Assembly: GCA_016214745.1 (NCBI GenBank)
Contig: JACRNW010000001.1
Coordinates: forward strand, 67,150 to 131,149
Reading direction: 5' to 3'
Source: Candidatus Falkowbacteria bacterium
GTDB lineage: Bacteria > Patescibacteriota > Patescibacteriia > XYB2-FULL-38-15
DNA: 64,000 nucleotides
Shown: positions 5,629 through 48,184 of the stretch, piece by piece
Numbering within the stretch: position 1 is the stretch's first letter
Layout of the letters: each line of letters opens with the position of its first letter
Position numbers and translations under genes: made by a program
Notes under the pieces: model-generated
The model's input: the letters and a program-made list of their open reading frames with translations, nothing else
Database searches by the model: none
What the model was told of the DNA's origin: nothing

Positions 5629-7848
5629 TTATCTAATTACTCCAACGTTTATGCCGCCCTTAAAATCCTGACTGAAAGAAAAAAATTCTTTGCGCAAAAA
5701 TCCTTTATTGTTGTAAATCTTAATTTGCGGCCCGCTACCCGGCCCGCCGCCAACAATGATTTCAGACACCTTATCACCGTCAAGATCGCCCAAAGCCAAA
5801 GTTACTCCTCCAGTTAAATTAGTGAACGGAGAAAATTTTAATTTCAAGGTCACATATTGTCCGTAAATTCTTACTTCTCCGCCATTGCTCATTTTTGTGA
5901 CGGCAATTTCGGCGATTTGATCGCCATCAGTGTCGCCCGCGGCCACCCGAAGACCGTTTTTGTATTCTTTTTCAAACGCCAAAAATTGAGTATTTAAATT
6001 TCCCCTTGAATCAAAAACTTTAACCATCGGTTCCAAGCCGTTGCCCGGTGCGACAATAATATCTGCCTTGCCGTCGCCGTCAACGTCTCCGGCCGCCACA
6101 TTTACGCCACCGCGGAAAGTTGTGGGGAAAGCCATGAACCCGCCAATCGGTGTGCCGTCCTGGCGGAAAATTCTGACATGCGGCCCGCCGCCTGGTCCGG
6201 CGCCGGTAATGATTTCGCTCTTGCCGTCGCCGTCAACGTCTCCGGCCGCCACATTTACGCCGCCGCGAAAAGTTGTAATATAGGCCATAAACCCGCTAAC
6301 CGGCGTGCCGTCCTGGCGGAAAATTCTGACATGCGGCCCGCCACCCGGTCCGGCGCCGGTAATGATTTCGCCGGCTCCGTCACCATTTAAATCGCCCGAA
6401 GCGAGACTTACTCCGCCCAAAAAACTCGTTGTGTAAGCTAAAAAACTTTTTAAGAAAGATGAATCTTCTTTAAATATTTTTACTTCCGGTTTTAACGCGG
6501 AGGCCGGGGCAACAAAAATATTTCCCCTTCGAAGCGCGAACGGCGAACTCTCCACTGTTAGGGCGGCGGCTTCAATTGTCCGAGTAATATTTAATCGTCC
6601 TTTCCCCAATTTCCCCGCGTATTCCGGATTTAAACTATCAATGTTGTCGGCGTTCACGGTAAGTAAATTTCTCACTTCGGGAACGCCGAGATTTGGATTT
6701 AAAGATTTAATCAACGCGGCAGTTCCGGCGACAAGCGGCGCGGCTACCGACGATCCCGACCAACCGCCGCTATAATATTCAGTAAATTGCGGCATACCAG
6801 GATTGTAAGCAACCGTGCTCCAAATATCAACGCCCGGCGCGGAAACGTCAACGCATTTTGTTCCGTAATTGGAAAACTCCGCTTTTTTATCATCTTTGTC
6901 CGTAGCGGCCACGCCAATCACGACATTTTCCCCGTCGCCACCATAATAGCAAACCGGATAAAGCGGTTCTTCATCTAAATCTTTTCCTGCGCCGCCCTGA
7001 TTTCCCACGGCGGCCACCACAATCACGCCGGCATTGTAAGCCCGCTCCAGTGCGAGAAATAAACTTTTACTGAAACCTGAACCGATAAAACTCAAATTAA
7101 TTACGTCCGCTCCCTTTTCCACGGCATAATCAATACCTTCAATAACAGTTAAGACATCGCCCGAACCGGCTGAATCCAAAACGCGGACCGACATAATCTT
7201 AGATTTCCACGCCACGCCGGCAATGCCTCTCGCGTTATTTCCAACTGCGGCGGCAACTCCGGCAATAATTGTCCCATGATCAATTCCCTCTTTAGTAAAC
7301 CACCATTCTTTAAAATCCGGCCGCGGATTATTGTCGCCGGCGACAAAATCCCAGCCGTTCACGTCGTCAACATAAATATTACCATCATTATCCGCGCCGT
7401 CGTTTGGCACCTCACCTTTGTTGACCCAAATATTATCTTTCAAATCTGGATGATCAAGGTCTACGCCCGTGTCCAAAACGGCAATCACCGTTTCGGGAGA
7501 ACCCGAAGTTTTTTCCCATCCGCCCCACACTCTAACTTTGTCCAAGTACCACTGCTCAACGATGTACGGATCGTTCATGGTAATCGCTTCGGCTGTCATT
7601 TTGTAATTCGGTTCGGCAAATTCAACATCAGCTCGGCTTTCATAAGCAGAAACGGCTCCCAAGACACTCTCGCCCGGCGCGAGCGATATTTTTTCTATCT
7701 GTGGATTGCCTTTAAATTTTACTAAAACTTCACTCAATTCATAGGCCCCGTTTGAAGCAACGTTAAAATCGGCGCTCACAGTCGGAAGTGGCCCTAAAAT
7801 TAGAGCAAATAAACTAAAAATTACCACTAAGTTTAATTTCTTAGCCAT
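5629..7848 (-). CDS. secreted subtilisin-like serine protease (peptidase S8) with C-terminal FG-GAP repeats
   Basis: Signal peptide. Catalytic Asp (VLDTGVDLDHPDL), His (HGTIIAG) and Ser (SGSSVAAPLVAG) motifs. Five or more GDxDGDGxxEIITGAGPGGGPHVRIF FG-GAP repeats. Confidence 0.85.
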   Translation of the reverse strand: MAKKLNLVVIFSLFALILGPLPTVSADFNVASNGAYELSEVLVKFKGNPQIEKISLAPGESVLGAVSAYESRADVEFAEPNYKMTAEAITMNDPYIVEQWYLDKVRVWGGWEKTSGSPETVIAVLDTGVDLDHPDLKDNIWVNKGEVPNDGADNDGNIYVDDVNGWDFVAGDNNPRPDFKEWWFTKEGIDHGTIIAGVAAAVGNNARGIAGVAWKSKIMSVRVLDSAGSGDVLTVIEGIDYAVEKGADVINLSFIGSGFSKSLFLALERAYNAGVIVVAAVGNQGGAGKDLDEEPLYPVCYYGGDGENVVIGVAATDKDDKKAEFSNYGTKCVDVSAPGVDIWSTVAYNPGMPQFTEYYSGGWSGSSVAAPLVAGTAALIKSLNPNLGVPEVRNLLTVNADNIDSLNPEYAGKLGKGRLNITRTIEAAALTVESSPFALRRGNIFVAPASALKPEVKIFKEDSSFLKSFLAYTTSFLGGVSLASGDLNGDGAGEIITGAGPGGGPHVRIFRQDGTPVSGFMAYITTFRGGVNVAAGDVDGDGKSEIITGAGPGGGPHVRIFRQDGTPIGGFMAFPTTFRGGVNVAAGDVDGDGKADIIVAPGNGLEPMVKVFDSRGNLNTQFLAFEKEYKNGLRVAAGDTDGDQIAEIAVTKMSNGGEVRIYGQYVTLKLKFSPFTNLTGGVTLALGDLDGDKVSEIIVGGGPGSGPQIKIYNNKGFLRKEFFSFSQDFKGGINVGVIR

Positions 7849-8132
7849 ACCCCGTTAGAAGCCCTTGGCAAAAAAGAATTTTAAGCGATTGCTGAGATAA
7901 CGTTTTCCCATACCGGATTTAAGATATCTTTCTTGCGCACGAGCGTCTTCTCTATTTAAACATGCTTCATAATAAATTAATTTCCACGGAGCCCCATATT
8001 TAGTTGATTTATTCTTGCGAGAATTATGCCTTAAAATTCTTTTTTCAAATCGCAAGTTGAACCTATATACTTTTTCTTTGTTTTATCGCTAAAAATAAGA
8101 TAAACACACCATATAGGCTTCTAACGGGGCAT
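7846..8132. repeat. element bounded by a 17-18-bp inverted repeat (CATACCCCGTTAGAAGCC ... GGCTTCTAACGGGGCAT) enclosing the GIY-YIG remnant
   Basis: Left arm 7846-7863, right arm 8116-8132 (16 of 17 match as a reverse complement). The left arm overlaps the start codon of the S8 protease gene. Confidence 0.6.
7855..8110 (-). pseudogene. degraded small GIY-YIG nuclease gene (frameshifted, no in-frame start)
   Basis: The ORF gives LRHNSRKNKSTKYGAPWKLIYYEACLNREDARAQERYLKSG, the C-terminal half of the ~90-aa GIY-YIG proteins common in CPR. The N-terminal GIY part (VYLIFSDKTKKKYIGSTCDLKKEF*) lies upstream in another frame. Confidence 0.6.
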
Positions 8133-8154
8133 ATTAAAAGATTATACCACTTTT

Positions 8155-8201
8155 ATTTTAAAAAACAAACCCACCTAATTTCTTAAAGAAAAGACGGGTT
8201 T
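8155..8201 (-). terminator. putative rho-independent terminator downstream of the 8221-10101 gene
   Basis: On the minus strand, AAACCC...GGGTTT stem followed by a T-run. Confidence 0.4.
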
Positions 8202-8220
8202 ATTTGATTTATTTAATGGT

Positions 8221-10101
8221 TTAGTACAAGTCGCTGATCGTCCTTGTGGTCGCCTCAACTGAAACCTTGCTGTAATCCGCGGTTGAACTGACGTCCGCTC
8301 CGGCTACGGCATTGCCGTAATTTGTTTTGTACACTTCCGGCACGGCGATAATTTTCTTTTCCCAATCAGCGCCGTAAAGCGAAGTCGCAACAGAGGCAGA
8401 AGTAATCCAGCGCAATTGGCCCGTGGCAGTTAAGACATAAACCTTTGGATCAAGAACGCGGAAAGGCGTATCCATACTGACAAACTGAACTAGAAAAGTG
8501 CCTGGTTTCGCGAGCACATTGCCGCCAAATGGAACCGACGTCACGATGGTGTGGCTCACAGTTTTAATGGTGGAAAAATTAGTATACCAGGAAAAATAAA
8601 TTGCCTGAGTCGGGAAAACATATCTCTTGCCGTTATCCGCGTAATAATAAACTGCTGTGCTTCCGGCCTCTTTAAACAAATCGCCGTAAACCAAGGTTGA
8701 AGTGCCTGTGAAAGTGACGGTCGTAGTCTGAGAAATTGTTACCCCGTCTGCTATGGCAGTTAGAGTCGCTGTACCAGTCGCTCCTGATCTGACTTGGAAA
8801 GTTGCCTGGCCTGAAGAATTGGTCGTTCCGTCAACGATCGTAATTGCGTCAGATGAACCGCGGTTGGACGACAAGGTTACGGTTTTACCGGAAAGAAGAG
8901 CATCAGAAGCGTCACGAACAGTTACATAAACCACTGAGTAAGAACTGCCGTCGGCCACTACTGAAGCCGGGATCGCGAGAACACTTGACCTTGAGGCGGA
9001 AACAGAACTGGAAACTACTCCGGTGAAGACAACGCTGGCCGTTTGGTCAACTGTTACGCCATCAGCCACCGCAGTAAAAGTGGCGCTGCCCGGCGTGTTG
9101 GAATGAGCTTGAAAATAAGCTTTGCCGGACGCGTCTGTCGTCCCATTAACAATTGCGATTGTGTCAGTCGCTCCACGGCTTGATGACACCGTCACGGTTT
9201 TACCGGAGAGCGCGCTGCCGGAAGAATTTTTTATTGTCGCGATAATTACCGAGACGGAAGAACCATCAGCTGTCACTGATGTTGGGGAAGCGGAAACCGT
9301 TGACAGGCTCGCGGAAACCGCGAGAGCCGGATCAGTGCCAGTTCTAAAACTCCAAGGATTTGTTATCGCGGGAGAGGCGCCGGAAGAAAGTAAATATCCG
9401 ACCAAATCTTCACCGCTCGTTGAAACAGTGATGTTCGTATCATAAGGAGGAGATGTTAATCTTGACCGAGTAACCGTTTTATCACCGTCACTCCAAGCAG
9501 GCATCAACCAACTTCCGGAACTGATGGAAAGCGAAGTCGCACTGGTCTGCATCGGTTCGGAAAAAGTCACTCTAATATATGAAAGCGTAGTGCTGACTCC
9601 AGTTGCTCCGGCCGTCGGGACGGTAGAAATAATAACCGGCGAAGCATTATCGTCAACATTTCTGAGCGGCTGGGTTGGAGCTCCTACACCCGAAACCGTA
9701 ACACTGTCCAAAGTTCCTAAATTTTTGTACTGGAGATCTGCCTGGACATACATAGTTGCCGGGTAGCCGGTTTCATTTGCGTCGCCGGAAACAAGAAGAT
9801 AAAAATAATTTGTTGTGCCGTTACAATCAAAATCTCCGCCCACACCATTTAACCTGCCCGTCGGCGCGGTCAGTCCAATACTTCCGGCGCCCACAGCCCA
9901 ATCGCCCGCTTCAAATTTGCAACTTGTTACCGCTAAATCAAAAGTCACTTTAAGACGGTCGATCGTGCCGTTGTGATCAAAATCCGAAAAAGCGACTGAC
10001 GTTAAAGTCGGCGTCCAGGCGTTTGCCGTTTGCGGTAGCATATTTACCCCGCTTACGGTCAAGACCATCGCGACCATGAGAAAAATTCTAAAGGTTTTCA
10101 T
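8221..10101 (-). CDS. secreted surface protein with two Big_1-like Ig domains and the conserved C-terminal domain (type II)
   Basis: Signal peptide. Two copies of SASPTSVTADGSS...SGKTVT(V/L)SS(S/N)RG...ATF(T/Q). The C-terminal ~170 aa (GDLFKEAGSTAVYYYADNGKRYVFPTQAIYFSWY...) is homologous to the C-termini of 21848-23530 and the N-terminal domain of 25480-29247. Confidence 0.7.
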   Translation of the reverse strand: MKTFRIFLMVAMVLTVSGVNMLPQTANAWTPTLTSVAFSDFDHNGTIDRLKVTFDLAVTSCKFEAGDWAVGAGSIGLTAPTGRLNGVGGDFDCNGTTNYFYLLVSGDANETGYPATMYVQADLQYKNLGTLDSVTVSGVGAPTQPLRNVDDNASPVIISTVPTAGATGVSTTLSYIRVTFSEPMQTSATSLSISSGSWLMPAWSDGDKTVTRSRLTSPPYDTNITVSTSGEDLVGYLLSSGASPAITNPWSFRTGTDPALAVSASLSTVSASPTSVTADGSSVSVIIATIKNSSGSALSGKTVTVSSSRGATDTIAIVNGTTDASGKAYFQAHSNTPGSATFTAVADGVTVDQTASVVFTGVVSSSVSASRSSVLAIPASVVADGSSYSVVYVTVRDASDALLSGKTVTLSSNRGSSDAITIVDGTTNSSGQATFQVRSGATGTATLTAIADGVTISQTTTVTFTGTSTLVYGDLFKEAGSTAVYYYADNGKRYVFPTQAIYFSWYTNFSTIKTVSHTIVTSVPFGGNVLAKPGTFLVQFVSMDTPFRVLDPKVYVLTATGQLRWITSASVATSLYGADWEKKIIAVPEVYKTNYGNAVAGADVSSTADYSKVSVEATTRTISDLY

Positions 10102-10277: not shown

Positions 10278-12626
10278 CTAGTAAATCTTCATCAGCATTT
10301 CTTCCGCGCCGGTGATATCCGCGCCGTTGGCGTAAGAAAGTGTGGTAGGAATTGCGAGGATATTTTCGCTCCGGAAATTATTGGCGGTGAAACCGGCCGC
10401 GGTGACTTTTCTTTTTTCCGCACCCTGGATGTAGTAGACGTCGGTTGTGCCAGAATATTGGACAAGCGCGCCGGTCGGGTGAGTGTCGGTTGAAATATCG
10501 GAACCAAAAAAATAATCGCCCCAGAAAGCAAGAGGCACATCTATGATCTTCGTCGCCCAGTTGCCGCCGTAGAGAGTTTTAATTCTTGTTTCAGTCGGAA
10601 TCCATCGGAGGAGACCGTTTGGTTCAACCGCGTAGACCTTTGGGTTGGTATCAATTTTCACGAGCACGGTGCCGGGACGAACTGTCACATTCTTGCCCAG
10701 AGGAATGGCCCGAAGTTCCTCGGCCGTGACGCTTTTTACGTTGCTCCAATCCGGATACCAACTCTTGTAAGTTTTCTCATTAGGGAAAATATGGCGCTTG
10801 TTGTCCGAGCCAAAGTAATAAACCGTAGTGCTCAAAGGACTCTTGAAGAGATCCCCCGCCACAAGACCGGCTGGATTTTCCGCCGAAGGTGGGGTCTCTG
10901 CTCCCGGTGGCGGAGGCGTGGTATAAGTAATCGTGAAATCCGCGTCGGAAATATCAGAAGCGACAAAGACGCCACTCTCGTCATGTCCTTCAACTTTAAT
11001 CTTTACCGTACTGCTCGGAACGTTAGGAACTGTCCAAGAATATGTGCCGTCATTATTTTCATTCGTGGCAATTGTATATGGGAAATTCACACCGCGATCT
11101 AGAGAATAATAGATTTTTACTTTAGTAATTGTCGTGCTCGTAGAGGACCAAGTAATGTTCTTGCTCGAGAGACCGGCCCAAGATTCGCCGCCGTTTGGAG
11201 ACAAAACCATGACAGAAGCAGGCAATCCTCCGCCGCCTCCGCCTCCTCCTCCGCCAGCCGCGACAGTGGTGAAGCTGAAGGGATTGGCAACCGGACCGGC
11301 CGCGAGATTGCCATCACCGGCAGCTGCCGAGGCAATTGTTCCAGCCAGAGTAATGGTGTATATCTGCATACCGGCAAAGGCGTCATGAGCAGCGTAGGTT
11401 AAAACTGTGTCGCCAGAAGTCCAACCCGCCGCGCCAAGAGTGAATGAAGGAAGTCTCGTGATCGCGCCAGTAACAGAGGCCTGGGTCATGGCTTCGGAGA
11501 AAGTGATGACCATGCTCGCGTCCAAAGCCACATCCGTGGCGGCACTGGCTGGAGAAGTGGTGACAATCACCGGAGCCGCACTGTCGGTAAAGGCCGGCGA
11601 GGAAGCAGAAGTAATAGTTTTGCTGGCCGCGGTGTTTGTACCATCAGTCACGGAAGTACCAGCGGTATAGGCAAGGGAGAGATCACCGACGTTTGTTTTA
11701 ACAGTGGTGGTTGTAAAACCATAATCGCACTCGTCAGCGGCGGCAGAACCGCTGTTACATTCAACTGTTCCTTCCACAATTCCGGCAAAGTTCGCGGCGG
11801 AAGTAAGTGCCCAATCAGCACTGCCATTGGCCACGGCGCTGATGTTTTCCGACCAGATTACGCCGATAAGGTCGAGTTTTCCGTCGCTACCCATAGCATC
11901 GTAAAAAGTGGTGGAGACGACAGCCGGAGCGGCGCCGTCGACATATGTAGCCTGAGATTGGTTACCAAGTGTTGTGTTAGTATTTGGAACACCGTCAGCC
12001 AAAGAAAAAAGGTTCTGGGTGGAAACTGCGAGGAGGCTGCTCGTATCGTTTGTGATTACGGCAGTCGCTTCTGTGCCGAGGTCAACGTCGGTTGAAGTAA
12101 CGGCGCCGGTGATAAGGTCAGTGGCGTTCGCGCCAAAAGCCGCACCGGTAAAGGAACCGACGTTGCCAAAAACCAGATCATTCGCCCGAAGAACTGAAGA
12201 TGCGGTAACTGTTTCCGAATAGTCAAAGATTATACGATCAATCTTGCCGTCAAGGTCAACATCTTGGTAAGTAATAGTTTTAATCACCGGGGCCGCGCCA
12301 TCAGTGAAGGCCGGAGAGGAAGCAGAAGTAATGGTCTTACTCGCCGCGGTGTTTGTACCATCAGTCACGGAAGTACCGGCAGTATAGGCAAGACTTAGAT
12401 CACCGACGTTTGTTTTAACAGTGGTGGTTGTAAAGGTGTAAGTAACGACATTCATTGGCGGCCGCGGCACCACTGTTGCAAATAACGGCGGTTTCAGTGA
12501 GAGCGGCAAAATTCGCCGCGGAAGAAATCGCCCAATCAGCGCTGCCATCGGCCACGGCGCTGATATTTTCTGACCAGACAACGGTAATACGATCAAGTTT
12601 TCCGTCGTTAGTTGCCGGCGAAGCAT
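10278..12626 (-). CDS. C-terminal portion of a split giant surface-protein gene (locus A). Module M x2, a poly-Gly linker, a PNGGE domain and the conserved C-terminal domain (type I)
   Basis: Overlaps 12415-15054 by ~210 nt in another frame. The homologous in-frame sequence exists internally (ADECDYGFTTTTVK). The true start is probably the upstream ORF. The C-terminus GDLFKSPLSTTVYYFGSDNKRHIFPNEKTYKSWY... is shared with loci B and C. Confidence 0.65.
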   Translation of the reverse strand: MLRRQLTTENLIVLPLSGQKISAPWPMAALIGRFLPRRILPLSLKPPLFATVVPRPPMNVVTYTFTTTTVKTNVGDLSLAYTAGTSVTDGTNTAASKTITSASSPAFTDGAAPVIKTITYQDVDLDGKIDRIIFDYSETVTASSVLRANDLVFGNVGSFTGAAFGANATDLITGAVTSTDVDLGTEATAVITNDTSSLLAVSTQNLFSLADGVPNTNTTLGNQSQATYVDGAAPAVVSTTFYDAMGSDGKLDLIGVIWSENISAVANGSADWALTSAANFAGIVEGTVECNSGSAAADECDYGFTTTTVKTNVGDLSLAYTAGTSVTDGTNTAASKTITSASSPAFTDSAAPVIVTTSPASAATDVALDASMVITFSEAMTQASVTGAITRLPSFTLGAAGWTSGDTVLTYAAHDAFAGMQIYTITLAGTIASAAAGDGNLAAGPVANPFSFTTVAAGGGGGGGGGGLPASVMVLSPNGGESWAGLSSKNITWSSTSTTITKVKIYYSLDRGVNFPYTIATNENNDGTYSWTVPNVPSSTVKIKVEGHDESGVFVASDISDADFTITYTTPPPPGAETPPSAENPAGLVAGDLFKSPLSTTVYYFGSDNKRHIFPNEKTYKSWYPDWSNVKSVTAEELRAIPLGKNVTVRPGTVLVKIDTNPKVYAVEPNGLLRWIPTETRIKTLYGGNWATKIIDVPLAFWGDYFFGSDISTDTHPTGALVQYSGTTDVYYIQGAEKRKVTAAGFTANNFRSENILAIPTTLSYANGADITGAEEMLMKIY
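11566..11712. repeat. diverged third copy of the ~145-bp module-M repeat (internal duplication)
   Basis: ~85 % identical to 12296-12440 by eye. Encodes the second FTTTTVKTNVGDLSLAYTAGTSVTDGTNTAASK module. Confidence 0.7.
12296..12440. repeat. ~145-bp repeat copy 1, identical to 19785-19930. The frameshift sits at its distal end
   Basis: Direct comparison of the two stretches (cagtgaaggccggagaggaagcagaagtaatggtcttactcgccgcggtgtttgtaccatcagtcacgg...gtggttgtaaaggtgtaa). Confidence 0.85.
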
Positions 12627-46085: not shown

Positions 46086-46469
46086 TGGTGGAGATGGCGG
46101 GAATTGAACCCGCGTCTAGAAGTCTTCGACAAAACGAATCTACAAGTTTAGCTAAATTAAATTTTTAAAACACAAGGTATAAATTTAGCAAAATCCTTGT
46201 GCCCGAGGCCTATTAATTTTCAAAAATTTCTCTAAGCCAAAGAAATTTTCTATCTCGGTTATGACACCGGGACCCGCCTACCGAGAGTCGGCGGCCGATG
46301 TGCCGCGGCTAGTTAAGCCGTGGCAGGAGCAAAGCTCGGAACGCGAAAAGCGCTCTTTACCTTGTTAAATAAGTTTGCACTTATTGATTTTGCCAAAGTT
46401 TTGCGAGATTGTGGCAATACTCGACTTGCTCATTTTGTAAAGAACTCCTATCGAGGCCTGTCATCCCCA
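46086..46469 (-). ncRNA. ssrA: tmRNA (transfer-messenger RNA)
   Basis: 3' end ...GACGCGGGTTCAATTCCCGCCATCTCCACCA (T-arm plus acceptor with encoded CCA). A candidate 5' end GGGGATGACAGGCCTCGATAGG pairs with the 3' acceptor strand. Directly follows smpB. About 384 nt. I could not resolve the tag reading frame. Confidence 0.6.
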
Positions 46470-46473
46470 AAAA

Positions 46474-46917
46474 TTATTTCTTCATCGCTTCACGAATTTT
46501 TTTGTCTATTTCTCTCTTTTTAATAAGATCTCTTTTCTCGTATTTCTTTTTGCCCCTGCCAATCCCAAATTCAAGTTTTATCTTATTGCCTTTAGTATAA
46601 ACTCTAATCGGCACTAAAGTCAAGCCCTTTTGCTTGATTTTTCCGTAAAGCGAAGATAGCTCTTCTTTTCTAAGAAGCAATTTGCGAGGCCGAGTCGGTT
46701 CATAATTCGGGAGCGCGCCAGCCATTTTATAAGGCGAAACGTGGGCATTAGTAAGCCAGGCTTCGTTTCCTTTTAAAGTAACAAAAGCCCCGGCCAAAGA
46801 TATGTGGCCGGTTTTAATTGATTTGACTTCCTGACCCGTGAGGACTATTCCCGCTTCAAATCGTTCAAGAATTTCATAATCAAAACTGGCTCGTTTGTTG
46901 ACAGAAATTGCTGGCAT
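46474..46917 (-). CDS. smpB: SsrA-binding protein
   Basis: FDYEILERFEAGIVLTGQEVKSIK...KLLLRKEE... Confidence 0.9.
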   Translation of the reverse strand: MPAISVNKRASFDYEILERFEAGIVLTGQEVKSIKTGHISLAGAFVTLKGNEAWLTNAHVSPYKMAGALPNYEPTRPRKLLLRKEELSSLYGKIKQKGLTLVPIRVYTKGNKIKLEFGIGRGKKKYEKRDLIKKREIDKKIREAMKK

Positions 46918-47060
46918 ACCCCGTTAAAAATCTGTTTTTAAAGTTATTAACGTTTCCTTCCAAAAAAATAAAAAATTGATTTTATATCCCGCTTCCTCGA
47001 GCGAAAAATTTTTATAAAAAATTTTAGCCGAGGATTTCTAACGGGGCATAACTTTTATAT
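46915..47060. repeat. second element bounded by the same inverted repeat family (CATACCCCGTTAAAA ... TTCTAACGGGGCAT), with no ORF inside
   Basis: The arms match the 7846-8132 element. The left arm again overlaps a start codon (smpB). Internal taacgtttcc resembles the first element. Confidence 0.5.
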
Positions 47061-47161
47061 TATAAATCAATAATCGATATTTTTCAATAAAAATTCCTTG
47101 CCGCGCTCACAATTTTATGCTATCATTTAATCAATCCATTAACTTATAATCCACTAAAATT

Positions 47162-48184
47162 ATGCCTGACCAAAAACCGACCACCTGGAATATATCCACT
47201 CTGGCAATCGTCAAAATTATTTTAACTTTGCTGATTTTGTATTTTGCTTATTTAATGTGGGACATTCTTGTTTTAATCATTATGGCCATAATTTTAGCCG
47301 TTTTGATTGACCCCTTGGCAGACCGGTTTGAAAAAAGAAAAGTTCCCCGCACTCTGGCCGTTCTCTTGGTTTACATAATTTTAATTTCACTCATCGGCCT
47401 GATTGTTGTTTTAATCGTCCCGCCCATTACCACTCAATTTCAGCAACTAACCGATAATATTCCAAATTATTGGGATCGCCTGAAAGCTCTGGGAGCCGAA
47501 GATCTTTTGGCCAAATACGATCTCTCTGCGCTTCAAAATAGTTTCAAAGCTATTGAGACCAGTCTGACCGAAGGAATTTTCACCGGCTTGGGCGGAATTT
47601 TTGGCGGAGTCGTTTCTTTCTTTTTGGTTTTAGTTCTGACTTTTTACATGGTCGTGGAAGAAAAAGAATTAAAAAACGTCGTTCGCTCGCTCGTCCCGGC
47701 CCATTACCAGCCGTATCTTTCCCAACTTGCCGGACGGATGAAAGAAAAAATGGCTGCCTGGCTCAAGGGACAATTGATTCTCTGTCTCATTATCGGGCTG
47801 GCCGTTTTCACTGGCCTTTCTATTTTGGGAGTCAAGTATGCTTTGGTTCTCGGCCTCATCGCTGGATTTTTGGAAATTATTCCTTACGTTGGCCCGTGGG
47901 TCGCCGCGGCGCTTGCTATCTTTATCGCCCTGGGACAATCCCCGATGCTCGCCCTCTTTACTCTCATTCTTTTTGTCGTGGTGCAATGGTTGGAAAATAA
48001 TCTTTTGGTTCCAAAAATTCTGCAGAAGGCCGTCGGTTTAAACCCGATCATCTCTATCCTCGCGATTATCACGGGCGCCAAACTCGCCGGATTCCTTGGG
48101 GTGCTCTTCGCCATTCCCGTCGCCAGCGCTCTTTCAATTTTACTTCAGGACTTTTTTAGAAACGGCGGAAAACCAAACGTTTAA
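47162..48184 (+). CDS. AI-2E family transporter (UPF0118/PerM)
   Basis: Eight TM helices. C-terminal ...LVPKILQKAVGLNPIISILAIITGAKLAGFLGVLFAIPVAS. Confidence 0.8.
   Translation: MPDQKPTTWNISTLAIVKIILTLLILYFAYLMWDILVLIIMAIILAVLIDPLADRFEKRKVPRTLAVLLVYIILISLIGLIVVLIVPPITTQFQQLTDNIPNYWDRLKALGAEDLLAKYDLSALQNSFKAIETSLTEGIFTGLGGIFGGVVSFFLVLVLTFYMVVEEKELKNVVRSLVPAHYQPYLSQLAGRMKEKMAAWLKGQLILCLIIGLAVFTGLSILGVKYALVLGLIAGFLEIIPYVGPWVAAALAIFIALGQSPMLALFTLILFVVVQWLENNLLVPKILQKAVGLNPIISILAIITGAKLAGFLGVLFAIPVASALSILLQDFFRNGGKPNV

Follow-up and report, generated by a model that had tools for sequence, protein, structure and literature searches.

Probable transposons of very small size, of IS/MITE type and with a GIY-YIG nuclease gene, at gene starts in Patescibacteria

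Two loci in the window, i.e., the whole 64-kb stretch of DNA analyzed, are probably insertions of very small IS/MITE-like transposons that belong to one family, in which a GIY-YIG nuclease is the only gene. Element 1 lies at the start of an S8 protease gene and contains a pseudogene of the nuclease, and element 2 lies at the start of smpB. Judged by its sequences, the family is widespread in the ultra-small Patescibacteria. It is apparently undescribed so far: a full-text literature search returned no earlier description of the element family, and neither PADLOC nor NCBIfam includes a family specific to these elements.

Insertions at the starts of the S8 protease gene and smpB

Each window element is bounded by 13-bp terminal inverted repeats (CCCCGTTAGAA.. 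/ ..TTCTAACGGGG) and by a 4-bp direct repeat, TATG. The arm motif TTYTAACGGGGYAT occurs four times in 64 kb, at 7847-7860 (-), 8119-8132 (+), 46916-46929 (-) and 47036-47049 (+), a count reached in 0 of 100 shuffles; TAACGGGG and CCCGTTAGA have no further occurrence in the 64-kb window. The original prediction of two loci with a common arm motif in inverted orientation agrees with the data; the occurrences are always paired, and the motif does not serve as a general start context. The right arm of locus 2 is to be placed at 47033-47049 instead of 47043-47059. The T/C difference noticed between the arms belongs to the TATG direct repeat just outside, and is not an imperfection of the inverted repeat.

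Element 1 (7850-8129, - strand) is of the full-length type, 280 bp, with boundaries set by the empty site of L087 and the family-wide boundary rule, and it can be aligned end to end with the intact elements of its subfamily (A5). Its 5′ terminal inverted repeat, CCCCGTTAGAAGC, is located at 8117-8129 (-) and forms one strand of the helix P1, and the 3′ repeat, GCTTCTAACGGGG, is located at 7850-7862 (-); the inverted repeat is perfect over 14 bp (7850-7863 / 8116-8129). The upstream copy of the TATG duplication (8130-8133, -; CATA on the + strand) opens a 3-codon ORF, ATG CCC CGT TAG. The downstream copy (7846-7849, -) includes the ATG (7848-7846) of the S8 protease gene (5629-7848, -). The nuclease pseudogene (7855-8114, -), for a protein of 85 aa, starts with ATA (8114-8112), the position of ATG in the intact homologues, which begin MWYVYLL. 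The predicted frameshift is confirmed: one nucleotide is missing from the A-run at 8045-8040, so that the N-terminal part follows the frame of 8132, and the C-terminal 66 aa, still open (7855-8055), follow that of 8130. The 3′ repeat includes the TAA stop codon of the nuclease frame (7857-7855), from which the host ATG is 6 nt away.

Element 2 (46919-47046, - strand) is a non-coding, MITE-like miniature of 128 bp, defined as an exact insertion relative to L081/L082, and its translation has no family match. The upstream copy of its TATG duplication lies at 47047-47050 (-; CATA on the + strand), and the downstream copy (46915-46918, -) includes the ATG (46917-46915) of smpB (46474-46917, -). At both host genes, the left arm overlaps the ATG as predicted, and so does the direct repeat. 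The 5′ terminal inverted repeat, CCCCGTTAGAAAT (47034-47046, -), and the 3′ repeat, ATTTTTAACGGGG (46919-46931, -), have one mismatch, with 12/13 bases complementary, which is also the single mismatch of the longer arms (46919-46932 / 47033-47046). These ends are those of element 1 and of intact elements in other genomes. The features by which MITEs are recognized, i.e., terminal inverted repeats, a target duplication, an empty site, small size and the lack of coding sequence, are all present, and multiple copies exist at the family level (31 minis in the genome loci and at least 120 metagenome loci). Derivation of element 2 from element 1 was considered and rejected, as the two have no significant internal homology and only the ends in common; the earlier-noted internal likeness (taacgtttcc) is not significant. 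We only infer that element 2 may be mobilized in trans by the enzyme of its partner. Since element 1 lacks its ATG and is frameshifted, both window copies are currently non-autonomous.

The comparison with relatives, found through homology searches, gave uninterrupted sites for both loci. At smpB, L081/L082 (SmpB 98% identical) read ...AAAAGTTATGCCAGCAATTTC, and the window is longer by 128 bp and a second TATG, exactly 132 bp. At the start of the protease gene, L087 (protein 88% identical) reads ...GTGGTATAATTCTAAAATATGGCTAAG, and the window has an extra 280 bp and a second TATG. L086 carries a 127-bp, internally deleted derivative of the full element at the same TATG of the protease gene. The exact-protein look-up of the window SmpB, permease and P0241 gave no match. 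The sequence comparison shows that both insertions were made exactly at gene starts. This was one of the two options offered originally; the other, an ordinary RBS supplied by the element, does not hold. As the element brings a duplicated TATG, the host start codon is preserved.

The promoters lie outside the elements. An extended -10 of the S8 protease gene, TGGTATAAT (8141-8149, -), was read by eye from the sequence and is also kept in L086 and L087; it is absent from the list of the consensus promoter scan because it has no -35 match. With the ATG of the empty site 8 nt downstream of it, the mRNA would be leaderless or near-leaderless. The smpB promoter (TTGAAA, 17 nt, TATAAT, 11/12 matches; 47059-47087, -) is also present in the empty-site strains, with the end of its -10 at 9 nt from the original ATG.

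A reading with no mobile element, in which the motif is the ordinary start context of genes or an RNA regulatory hairpin, would account for the position of the motif next to start codons and for a sense RNA predicted to fold with its ends paired (z ~ -4.3). It is barely conceivable, as it is already refuted by filled and empty sites in near-identical strains. The target duplications and the mere four occurrences of the motif in 64 kb, all paired, also stand against it, as do the lack of an Rfam match (only chance matches for 7600-8400 at E<=10) and of G:U enrichment.

Ends, targets and start codons of the family

More than 1200 intact GIY-YIG homologues of 85-95 aa were matched, mostly in Patescibacteria. 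The genome set, composed of 80 loci of family members (368 kb), contains 95 arm pairs of bimodal length, which correspond to ~64 full elements of 271-311 bp and ~31 minis of ~30-180 bp. The minis are non-coding and retain the ends alone. The same ends, with the 13-bp consensus YCCCGTTAGAnnn ... nnnTCTAACGGGR, flank the nuclease genes in ~70/80 family members from several phyla. Exact 4-bp flanking repeats are present in 54/95 pairs, compared with ~0.4 expected by chance, and all 54 have the form YNNR. The independent metagenome set of 126 minis (at least 120 loci) behaves alike: exact 4-bp flanks occur in 72/126, 70 of these 72 being YNNR, and a GIY-YIG gene is located within the fetched flanks in only 6/120 mini loci. 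Terminal inverted repeats together with a target duplication of fixed length are the classical marks of insertion sequences. The recognized transposases (DDE, HUH, serine or tyrosine) are not represented, and the sole ORF encodes a GIY-YIG protein. The element length leaves no room for a second gene. The suggestion of a mobile family with a MITE derivative therefore stands, as intact GIY-YIG genes and short non-coding elements are found behind the same ends in dozens of genomes. Its homing variant is not supported, since the many unrelated target genes have YNNR only in common, and since the elements have terminal inverted repeats and target duplications, neither of which is known for homing endonuclease genes.

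Tandem and nested copies have one duplication in common, and the terminal base type (C..G or T..A) is alike in the mini and the full element of the same contig in ~10/11 contigs. Strict sticky-end inheritance of the duplication was considered and rejected: among related elements at different sites, it is the same in 12 cases and different in 10. With the duplication common to such elements in no more than about half of the cases, simple re-ligation of sticky ends does not suffice as a model. On viral contigs, the pattern search gave two matches, and the one examined has neither a nuclease gene nor a duplication.

The position of the elements is closely related to host translation. The host start codon is located exactly at the 3′ junction in 33/64 full elements, always co-oriented with the nuclease ORF, and in only one case on the antisense side; it coincides with 52/~60 TGAA and 5/5 TATG duplications. 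Two arrangements are distinguished. In the window subfamily, with the target T|ATG, the upstream copy opens an MPR-stop ORF at the old transcription/translation start, followed by the nuclease ORF, and the host ATG survives in the downstream copy, 6 nt past the nuclease stop codon. In other subfamilies, with the target A|TGAA, the nuclease frame continues from the upstream ATG and stops at the duplicated TGA, and the host start codon is rebuilt from the last element base (A or G) and TG. This start-codon bias could in part reflect survivorship in streamlined genomes, instead of targeting. The use of start codons with ATG and TGA borrowed from the element's own duplication represents a compact parasitism on translation signals.

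IS5-group DDE enzymes make 4-bp duplications of the YTAR type, which the Y..R duplication of the elements resembles. The elements might be MITEs moved in trans by a conventional transposase, for example one of this kind, with the GIY-YIG gene as a mere passenger captured by some copies. That minis with unrelated interiors far outnumber the full copies speaks for this, and so does general knowledge of GIY-YIG enzymes, for which no transposase activity is known to us. It is nevertheless improbable: the nuclease ORF takes up the whole element, ends on a stop codon within the 3′ repeat or the duplication, and in many cases begins at the host ATG. Moreover, the constancy of the ends in the ~70/80 family members across phyla, the lack of any other gene common to the loci, and the helix P2, which ties the coding sequence to the element 3′ end, speak against it.

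The arms could also be recombination sites, attC-like or other, of a host or integron tyrosine recombinase, with the 4-bp duplication as a crossover core. There is a likeness of GTTAGA / TCTAAC to the integron core GTTRRRY / RYYYAAC, a short palindrome arises at tandem junctions, the same tetranucleotide is often present in close relatives, and copies outside Patescibacteria occur in integron-integrase-like genes. These recombinase genes are interrupted targets, however, not neighbors, and no recombinase gene was seen beside the window copies. The likeness does not extend to the outer positions of the consensus, and the junction leaves ~14 nt between cores, compared with attC sites of 57-141 bp. 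The elements are single insertions at gene starts and not cassette arrays, and, set beside the description of integron cassettes, they seem to have neither attC sites of that size nor arrays near attI/intI. Such an origin is highly doubtful.

The nuclease and the paired helices

The comparison with databases was carried out on the conceptually repaired protein, since the window copy is frameshifted. The repaired protein matches the Pfam domain PF01541 with 57.9 bits (cut-off 22.6; 1.3e-15), and the domain is present in 120/120 homologues among the matches listed. Eight residues, Y5, Y16, G18, K25, R26, H30, N31 and E50, are invariant in 18 family members and, by analogy with I-TevI, on which their roles were mapped, would be of catalytic type. 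The AlphaFold model (pLDDT 82) has the alpha/beta GIY-YIG fold, with Slx1, UPF0213 BH0048, I-TevI and UvrC-N as the best PDB matches, and the profile search matches 1zg2 and Slx1. From its sequence, the family protein is a putative nuclease of the Slx1/UPF0213 branch of the GIY-YIG superfamily, with Slx1 and UPF0213 (YhbQ, BH0048) as the closest relatives in sequence and structure. The structure-specific cleavage of these proteins would suit the paired ends or the palindromic junction of the elements. Slx1 differs in having a RING/PHD domain and the partner Slx4, and we know of no cellular UPF0213 gene that is repeat-flanked or mobile.

The fold also recalls the GIY-YIG homing genes (I-TevI, T4 Seg), likewise selfish DNA with a nuclease of related catalytic fold as its sole product. 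A free-standing homing endonuclease gene might have spread by cleavage of one cognate empty allele and copying during recombinational repair, with the short locus as a decayed copy. The catalytic domain is weakly similar to the group I intron endonucleases (24 bits with TIGR01453, whose cut-off is 56, over profile positions 4-83 of 215 only), and outside Patescibacteria tyrosine recombinase genes have one conserved motif, and tRNA-Pro one position, at which insertions recur. Apart from these hot spots, which are partial exceptions, there is no single long cognate target; dozens of unrelated target genes have YNNR alone in common. The proteins of 85-95 aa have no DNA-binding extension, unlike the homing-type architecture (~200-250 aa). 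Inverted repeats, target duplications and putatively mobilizable non-coding derivatives with the same ends and unrelated interiors are further differences, which make homing very unlikely.

Two helices are conserved in the family. The first, P1, is formed by the element ends and is 99% paired, with 3-6 covarying pairs. The second, P2, is internal to the coding region, is held by compensatory changes across the family and was tested inside each subfamily, as its register is shifted by 2 nt between subfamilies; it is 90-96% paired with 4-6 covarying pairs, compared with 20-65% paired in slid controls. Because of this shift, the family-wide consensus fold gave P1 only. In element 1, P2 is a perfect 16-bp inverted repeat, with the 5′ strand, AAAAAAGAATTTTAAG (8030-8045, -), in the K-R-I-L codons, and the 3′ strand, CTTAAAATTCTTTTTT (7870-7885, -), in the L-K-F-F-F codons, 7 nt from the 3′ terminal repeat. 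No G:U bias on the sense strand was present among the non-Watson-Crick cells, which speaks for DNA as the level of pairing or recognition. The hairpin AAATATCTT / AAGATATTT (~positions 203/237), the third one considered, was rejected as incidental, since it depends on the choice of Arg codon and is missing in many members.

A possible mode of movement and known systems

The probable assignment of the elements to one transposon family is accompanied by a possible mechanism. The GIY-YIG nuclease would mobilize both the full and the mini forms; its ORF fits the target in that it starts at the host ATG and stops at the duplicated TGA. The low share of metagenome mini loci with a GIY-YIG gene in the fetched flanks (6/120) counts against this role. 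The nuclease may recognize the paired ends and cut with a 4-nt stagger at R|Y steps. GIY-YIG enzymes are, to our knowledge, hydrolytic nucleases with no strand-transfer chemistry, and the joining must fall to host functions; host ligation or repair would complete the move. After the insertion, the host gene may be translated by termination-reinitiation coupling.

A bolder proposal, held tentatively and leaning slightly towards doubt, is that the ~85-aa Slx1-like nuclease is the one enzyme behind a new class of prokaryotic DNA transposons, the smallest autonomous ones known (~280 bp), which insert preferentially at start codons. In this case, the enzyme would recognize its own paired ends, and possibly also the palindromic end-duplication-end junction, and cut YNNR sites with a 4-nt stagger. 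The preferred sites would be start codons which coincide with transcription starts (leaderless genes), and the element would take over the host initiation signals, so that host translation depends on read-through of the element. P2 would then indicate that pairing with its own active-site codons dictates the nuclease C-terminal tail.

Several known systems resemble the elements in part. Insertion sequences and MITEs (IS630/Tc1-type, IS5 group; Correia/NEMIS-type) have the same terminal inverted repeats and short duplication of fixed length, autonomous and mini forms with only the ends in common, filled and empty sites, and tandem or nested insertions. The differences are that the only protein of the present family is a GIY-YIG nuclease of 85-95 aa in place of a DDE, HUH, serine or tyrosine transposase, that the coding form has ~280 bp, and that there is a strong bias to exact, co-oriented host start codons, with a borrowed start and a duplicated stop codon. 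The autonomous IS elements known to us have at least ~700 bp. The REP/RAYT (REPINs) and IS200/IS605 systems likewise have a small single gene between inverted hairpin-forming repeats, many short non-coding relatives, a tetranucleotide target and a likely dependence on DNA secondary structure. They use HUH Y1 transposases with subterminal hairpins and no target duplication, whereas the elements have a GIY-YIG protein and a 4-bp duplication. Penelope-like retroelements are the only established transposable elements which integrate with a GIY-YIG endonuclease (PMC8557442). Those are eukaryotic and encode a reverse transcriptase, which is lacking in the elements, DNA bounded by inverted repeats.

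If the nuclease drives the movement, the enzyme classes of prokaryotic DNA transposition are extended by a hydrolytic GIY-YIG nuclease, and a new lower size limit is set for autonomous mobile elements. The abundance of small 'GIY-YIG nuclease family protein' genes in Patescibacteria genomes would be explained as well. Small GIY-YIG nuclease genes of Patescibacteria appear as horizontally transferred genes (PMC12455944), and mobility would be the reason for this. The elements can serve as natural markers of strain-level variation, and their exact use of host start codons offers a way to study leaderless initiation and translational coupling in uncultured bacteria. A further observation concerns annotation: N-terminally extended database proteins run through the arm (MNPVRS.., CPVRS.., YAPLE..), and such nuclease and SmpB-type calls are likely systematic mis-annotations.

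Filled and empty insertion sites

Both elements lie on the minus strand and share one layout, which reads ...TGGTATAAT-cttttaa-[TATG]-CCCCGTTAGAAGCC...GGCTTCTAACGGGG-[TATG]-GCTAAG... at locus 1 (7850-8129, 280 bp, with a GIY-YIG pseudogene) and ...TATAAT-ataaaagt-[TATG]-CCCCGTTAGAAATC...GATTTTTAACGGGG-[TATG]-CCAGCA... at locus 2 (46919-47046, a 128-bp non-coding mini). The 14-nt arm motif occurs four times in the 64-kb window, always as two inverted pairs and nowhere else. The original prediction described the whole arm as an inverted repeat; this is correct for 13-14 bp, while the outer 4 bp form a direct repeat, TATG, and the right arm of locus 2 is in fact located at 47033-47049, ~7-10 nt from where it was first placed. 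The predicted overlap of the arm with the host ATG is present, as the downstream TATG holds the start codon of the S8 protease gene (5629-7848) and of smpB (46474-46917).

The suggested comparison with orthologous loci revealed empty sites for both loci and confirmed the insertion exactly at gene starts, since the sites of relatives differ by the exact element and the second TATG. The S8 protease is 100% identical to P0241, which places the window in a Candidatus Falkowbacteria genome. For smpB, the empty site is found in two assemblies whose SmpB is 98% identical and which share with the window the divergent permease gene and a near-identical intergenic region; both read ...ATAAAAGTTATGCCAGCAATTTC, to which the window adds exactly 128 bp and a second TATG. 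For the protease, a relative with an 88% identical protein and the same neighbours (L087) reads ...GTGGTATAATTCTAAAATATGGCTAAG, and the window carries an extra 280 bp and second TATG. A third state is represented by another relative (L086, protease 92% identical), in which a 127-bp element (1873-1999) occupies the same TATG. Its 5′ interior is homologous to the window full element and its arms are CCCCGTAG and CTACGGGG; the L086 element descends, through internal deletion, from the protease insertion seen in the window. One T is missing from both of its arms, and this concerted change is a hint of mutual correction between the arms.

The elements are shown to be inserted DNA, bounded by 13-bp terminal inverted repeats and flanked by 4-bp YNNR duplications; they come in a coding and a miniature form and are concentrated on start codons of the same orientation. 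The same inverted repeat surrounds the gene in ~70 of 80 loci from species-representative genomes. An arm-pair scan of all 368 kb of these 80 loci returned 95 elements of bimodal length: those carrying the gene measure 271-311 bp and those lacking it 27-183 bp, the latter clustering at 95-138 bp like the window mini. With boundaries set 2 nt outside the CCGTTAGA and TCTAACGG cores, exact 4-bp flanking direct repeats accompany 54 of the 95 elements (~0.4 expected), and all 54 have the YNNR form; TGAA is found in 26, and three, both window copies included, have TATG, which appears as CATA when the opposite strand is read. Positions 1, 11, 12 and 13 of the 13-bp repeat vary between elements yet remain complementary, and its rare mismatches have no G:U bias. 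In metagenomes, taken as an independent set, a pattern for 98-128-bp minis matched at least 120 loci; among the matches listed, 72 of 126 have exact 4-bp flanks, 70 of them YNNR. A subgroup of minis, recurring in different genomes, has a terminal repeat lengthened by a GC-rich palindrome (..AGAAGCCGCGATCGC...GCGATCGCGATCTGCTTCT..; L033 4198-4313, L047 2788-2904, L066 1783-1829, L067 1134-1254).

Position on host start codons

Among 64 full elements, 33 abut a long host ORF whose start falls precisely on the 3′ junction and which is co-oriented with the nuclease gene in all cases; a further nine have a host ORF start within 12 nt. The opposite orientation is seen once. In the TGAA-type register, the host ATG or GTG consists of the last element base (A or G) and TG, and in the TATG register the whole start codon lies inside the duplication. 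Across all elements, 52 of ~60 TGAA/TTCA and 5/5 TATG duplications are on start codons, and TAAA/TTTA duplications are mostly intergenic. The upstream TGAA copy also retains the TGA stop of the preceding gene in 13 cases, so the target there is an ATGA stop/start overlap.

Targeted starts are enriched in a -10-like hexamer that ends 6-8 nt upstream, a spacing typical of leaderless mRNAs, and depleted in SD-like motifs. The hexamer is found at 34% of the starts targeted by minis, compared with 13% of crude control starts (p = 3e-5). Expression of the nuclease, taken as the only selected trait, does not account for this, since minis, which have no gene to express, show the enrichment too. Both window targets share this geometry (extended -10 TGGTATAAT at 8149-8141; TTGAAA-17-TATAAT at 47087-47059). 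The smpB mini is missing from the 98%-identical strain yet is already on the ATG, which speaks for targeting and against long-term survivorship as the sole cause.

The nuclease ORF is tailored to its position on start codons. An in-frame fusion of the nuclease to the upstream copy of the host ATG (MNPVR(D/S)..) is present in 18 full elements. The ORF of a second subfamily lacks a stop codon and is terminated by the TGA or TAA that the downstream duplication supplies, in an ATGA overlap with the host ATG. Members of the window subfamily (L001-L003, L012 and the window) have TATG as their target; the upstream ATG opens ATG CCC CGT TAG, the ATG of the nuclease itself comes a few nt later, and the nuclease stop, TAA, is located in the 3′ arm, 6 nt upstream of the host ATG. 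The nuclease ORF (in the window, a 3-codon ORF instead) would be driven by the upstream start copy, and the host gene would then be translated through termination-reinitiation 0-6 nt downstream.

A -10 box within ~10 nt of the start codon, without an SD, also precedes other window genes, an example being the permease at 47162 (47098-47165, plus strand), and mRNAs with no leader or a very short one may be frequent in this genome. Several close SmpB homologues of 159-176 aa (P0122, P0124, P0125, P0127, P0128 and P0131) carry in their annotation 12-29 additional N-terminal residues without counterpart in the 147-aa forms, and the call in L084 begins ~80 nt upstream, in the promoter region. Such extensions are probably start-codon miscalls. 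The tmRNA gene (tag ANLFNKVKSAFRVPSFAPATA; 46086-46468, minus strand) is directly downstream of smpB, which places the mini at the head of an smpB-ssrA pair.

The nuclease and the paired ends

The remnant in element 1 is, as first proposed, a GIY-YIG pseudogene; the loss of 1 nt from an A-run at 8045-8040 has put its two halves out of frame with each other. Its initiator is ATA (8114-8112), which is ATG in homologues. The conceptually repaired protein was used for homologue searches and family assignment, the latter being unaffected by the repair. It matches more than 1200 proteins of 85-95 aa, mostly from Patescibacteria; identity among the best 120 is 64-78%, and all of these belong to PF01541. 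Most homologues begin with MWYVYLL, and the N-terminal extensions of some are translated 5′ arm (..CPVRS.., ..YAPLE.., MNPVRS..). A minimal GIY-YIG fold is predicted (model pLDDT 82), and the family protein has no DNA-binding extension. Its nearest relatives by sequence profile and structure are UPF0213 BH0048, Slx1, the I-TevI catalytic domain and UvrC-N. Slx1 is a structure-specific endonuclease. NCBIfam holds no specific family for the nuclease, and PADLOC gave no convincing match, with a single marginal one for one member (PDC-S14, E = 0.0012).

Sense-RNA folds of both window elements are closed by P1, the helix of the paired ends (z about -4.3). Every subfamily also has a long-range inverted repeat in the coding sequence, P2, pairing positions ~85-105 with ~245-265, its 3′ strand only 3-7 nt from the 3′ arm; in the window it is a perfect 16-mer (8030-8045 with 7870-7885). 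Its sequence is GCGAAAAAGAATTTTAA or AAACGCTTTAATC with the complement, depending on the subfamily, and the register shifts by 2 nt between subfamilies, which explains why the family-wide consensus fold contained only P1. Within subfamilies, P2 is 90-96% paired versus 20-65% in slid controls, with 4-6 pairs changed on both sides. One of them (U:A 17, C:G 5, G:C 4, A:U 2) connects third codon positions that lie 150 nt apart, a synonymous one for Leu and one for Phe/Leu. The 5′ strand codes the conserved ..RKR(I/F).. segment and the 3′ strand the C-terminal ..LKFFF / ..LKRF.. tail, whose sequence is therefore largely dictated by complementarity to the ..RKR(I/F).. codons. G:U is not enriched among non-Watson-Crick cells (6/42), which makes a structure at the DNA level more likely than one in RNA.

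We consider it fairly probable that both element forms are mobilised by the GIY-YIG nuclease; a passenger role of the gene, homing, recombinase sites and a plain regulatory hairpin are less probable alternatives. Every junction (flank/duplication and duplication/element, both strands) is an R/Y step, which would fit a symmetric enzyme making 4-nt staggered cuts, after which a host ligase or polymerase would complete the insertion. Slx1-like ancestry, strictly complementary ends, P2 and tandem copies with one common duplication (L001, L030, L057) suggest recognition of the paired ends or of the palindromic end-duplication-end junction. Both window copies are non-autonomous.

The element behaves like an IS/MITE pair but lacks a recognised transposase, the defining IS feature. 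Homing endonuclease genes have the same enzyme fold, but the element differs from them in target and architecture. Integron cassettes, REP/RAYT and IS200/IS605 elements do not fit either. No description was found in open full-text literature, Rfam, NCBIfam or PADLOC; one may exist elsewhere, for instance in subscription literature or ISfinder. GIY-YIG genes are listed among genes transferred from Patescibacteria (PMC12455944).

Unusual targets and neighbouring genes

At least three independent insertions are found at the same position of tRNA-Pro(TGG) genes, one a full element (L011 2482-2763) and the others minis (L045 740-842, L046 2894-2994, L061 2935-3035). The first 9 nt of the tRNA are rebuilt from the element's last 5 nt (CGGGG or CGGGC) and the duplication, and in L011 both termini are altered (G...C) to match the tRNA. 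This suggests a preference for targets resembling the element's own right end (CGGGR/YNNR). Minis also occupy the ATG/TGG start of another element's GIY-YIG gene, with the duplication TGTG (L006 2368-2501, L017 2377-2501); the elements thus parasitise each other's start codons.

Outside Patescibacteria, longer versions of 296-312 bp, found in Proteobacteria, Scalindua and Gracilimonas MAGs (L027, L031, L048, L050 and L069), are inserted into integron-integrase-like tyrosine recombinase genes, at or close to the ..HSFATHLLE.GYDIRTVQELLGH.. motif. For L048 and L069, the reading frame is restored when the element is taken out together with a 3-4-bp repeat; adjacent deletions are present in L031 and L050.

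Upstream of element 1, two large minus-strand genes (8221-10101 and 10278-12626) encode Big_1/invasin-like surface proteins, which have in common a similar C-terminal domain of ~120 aa (..LFK..ST.VYY...NKR..FPN...Y.SWY..).
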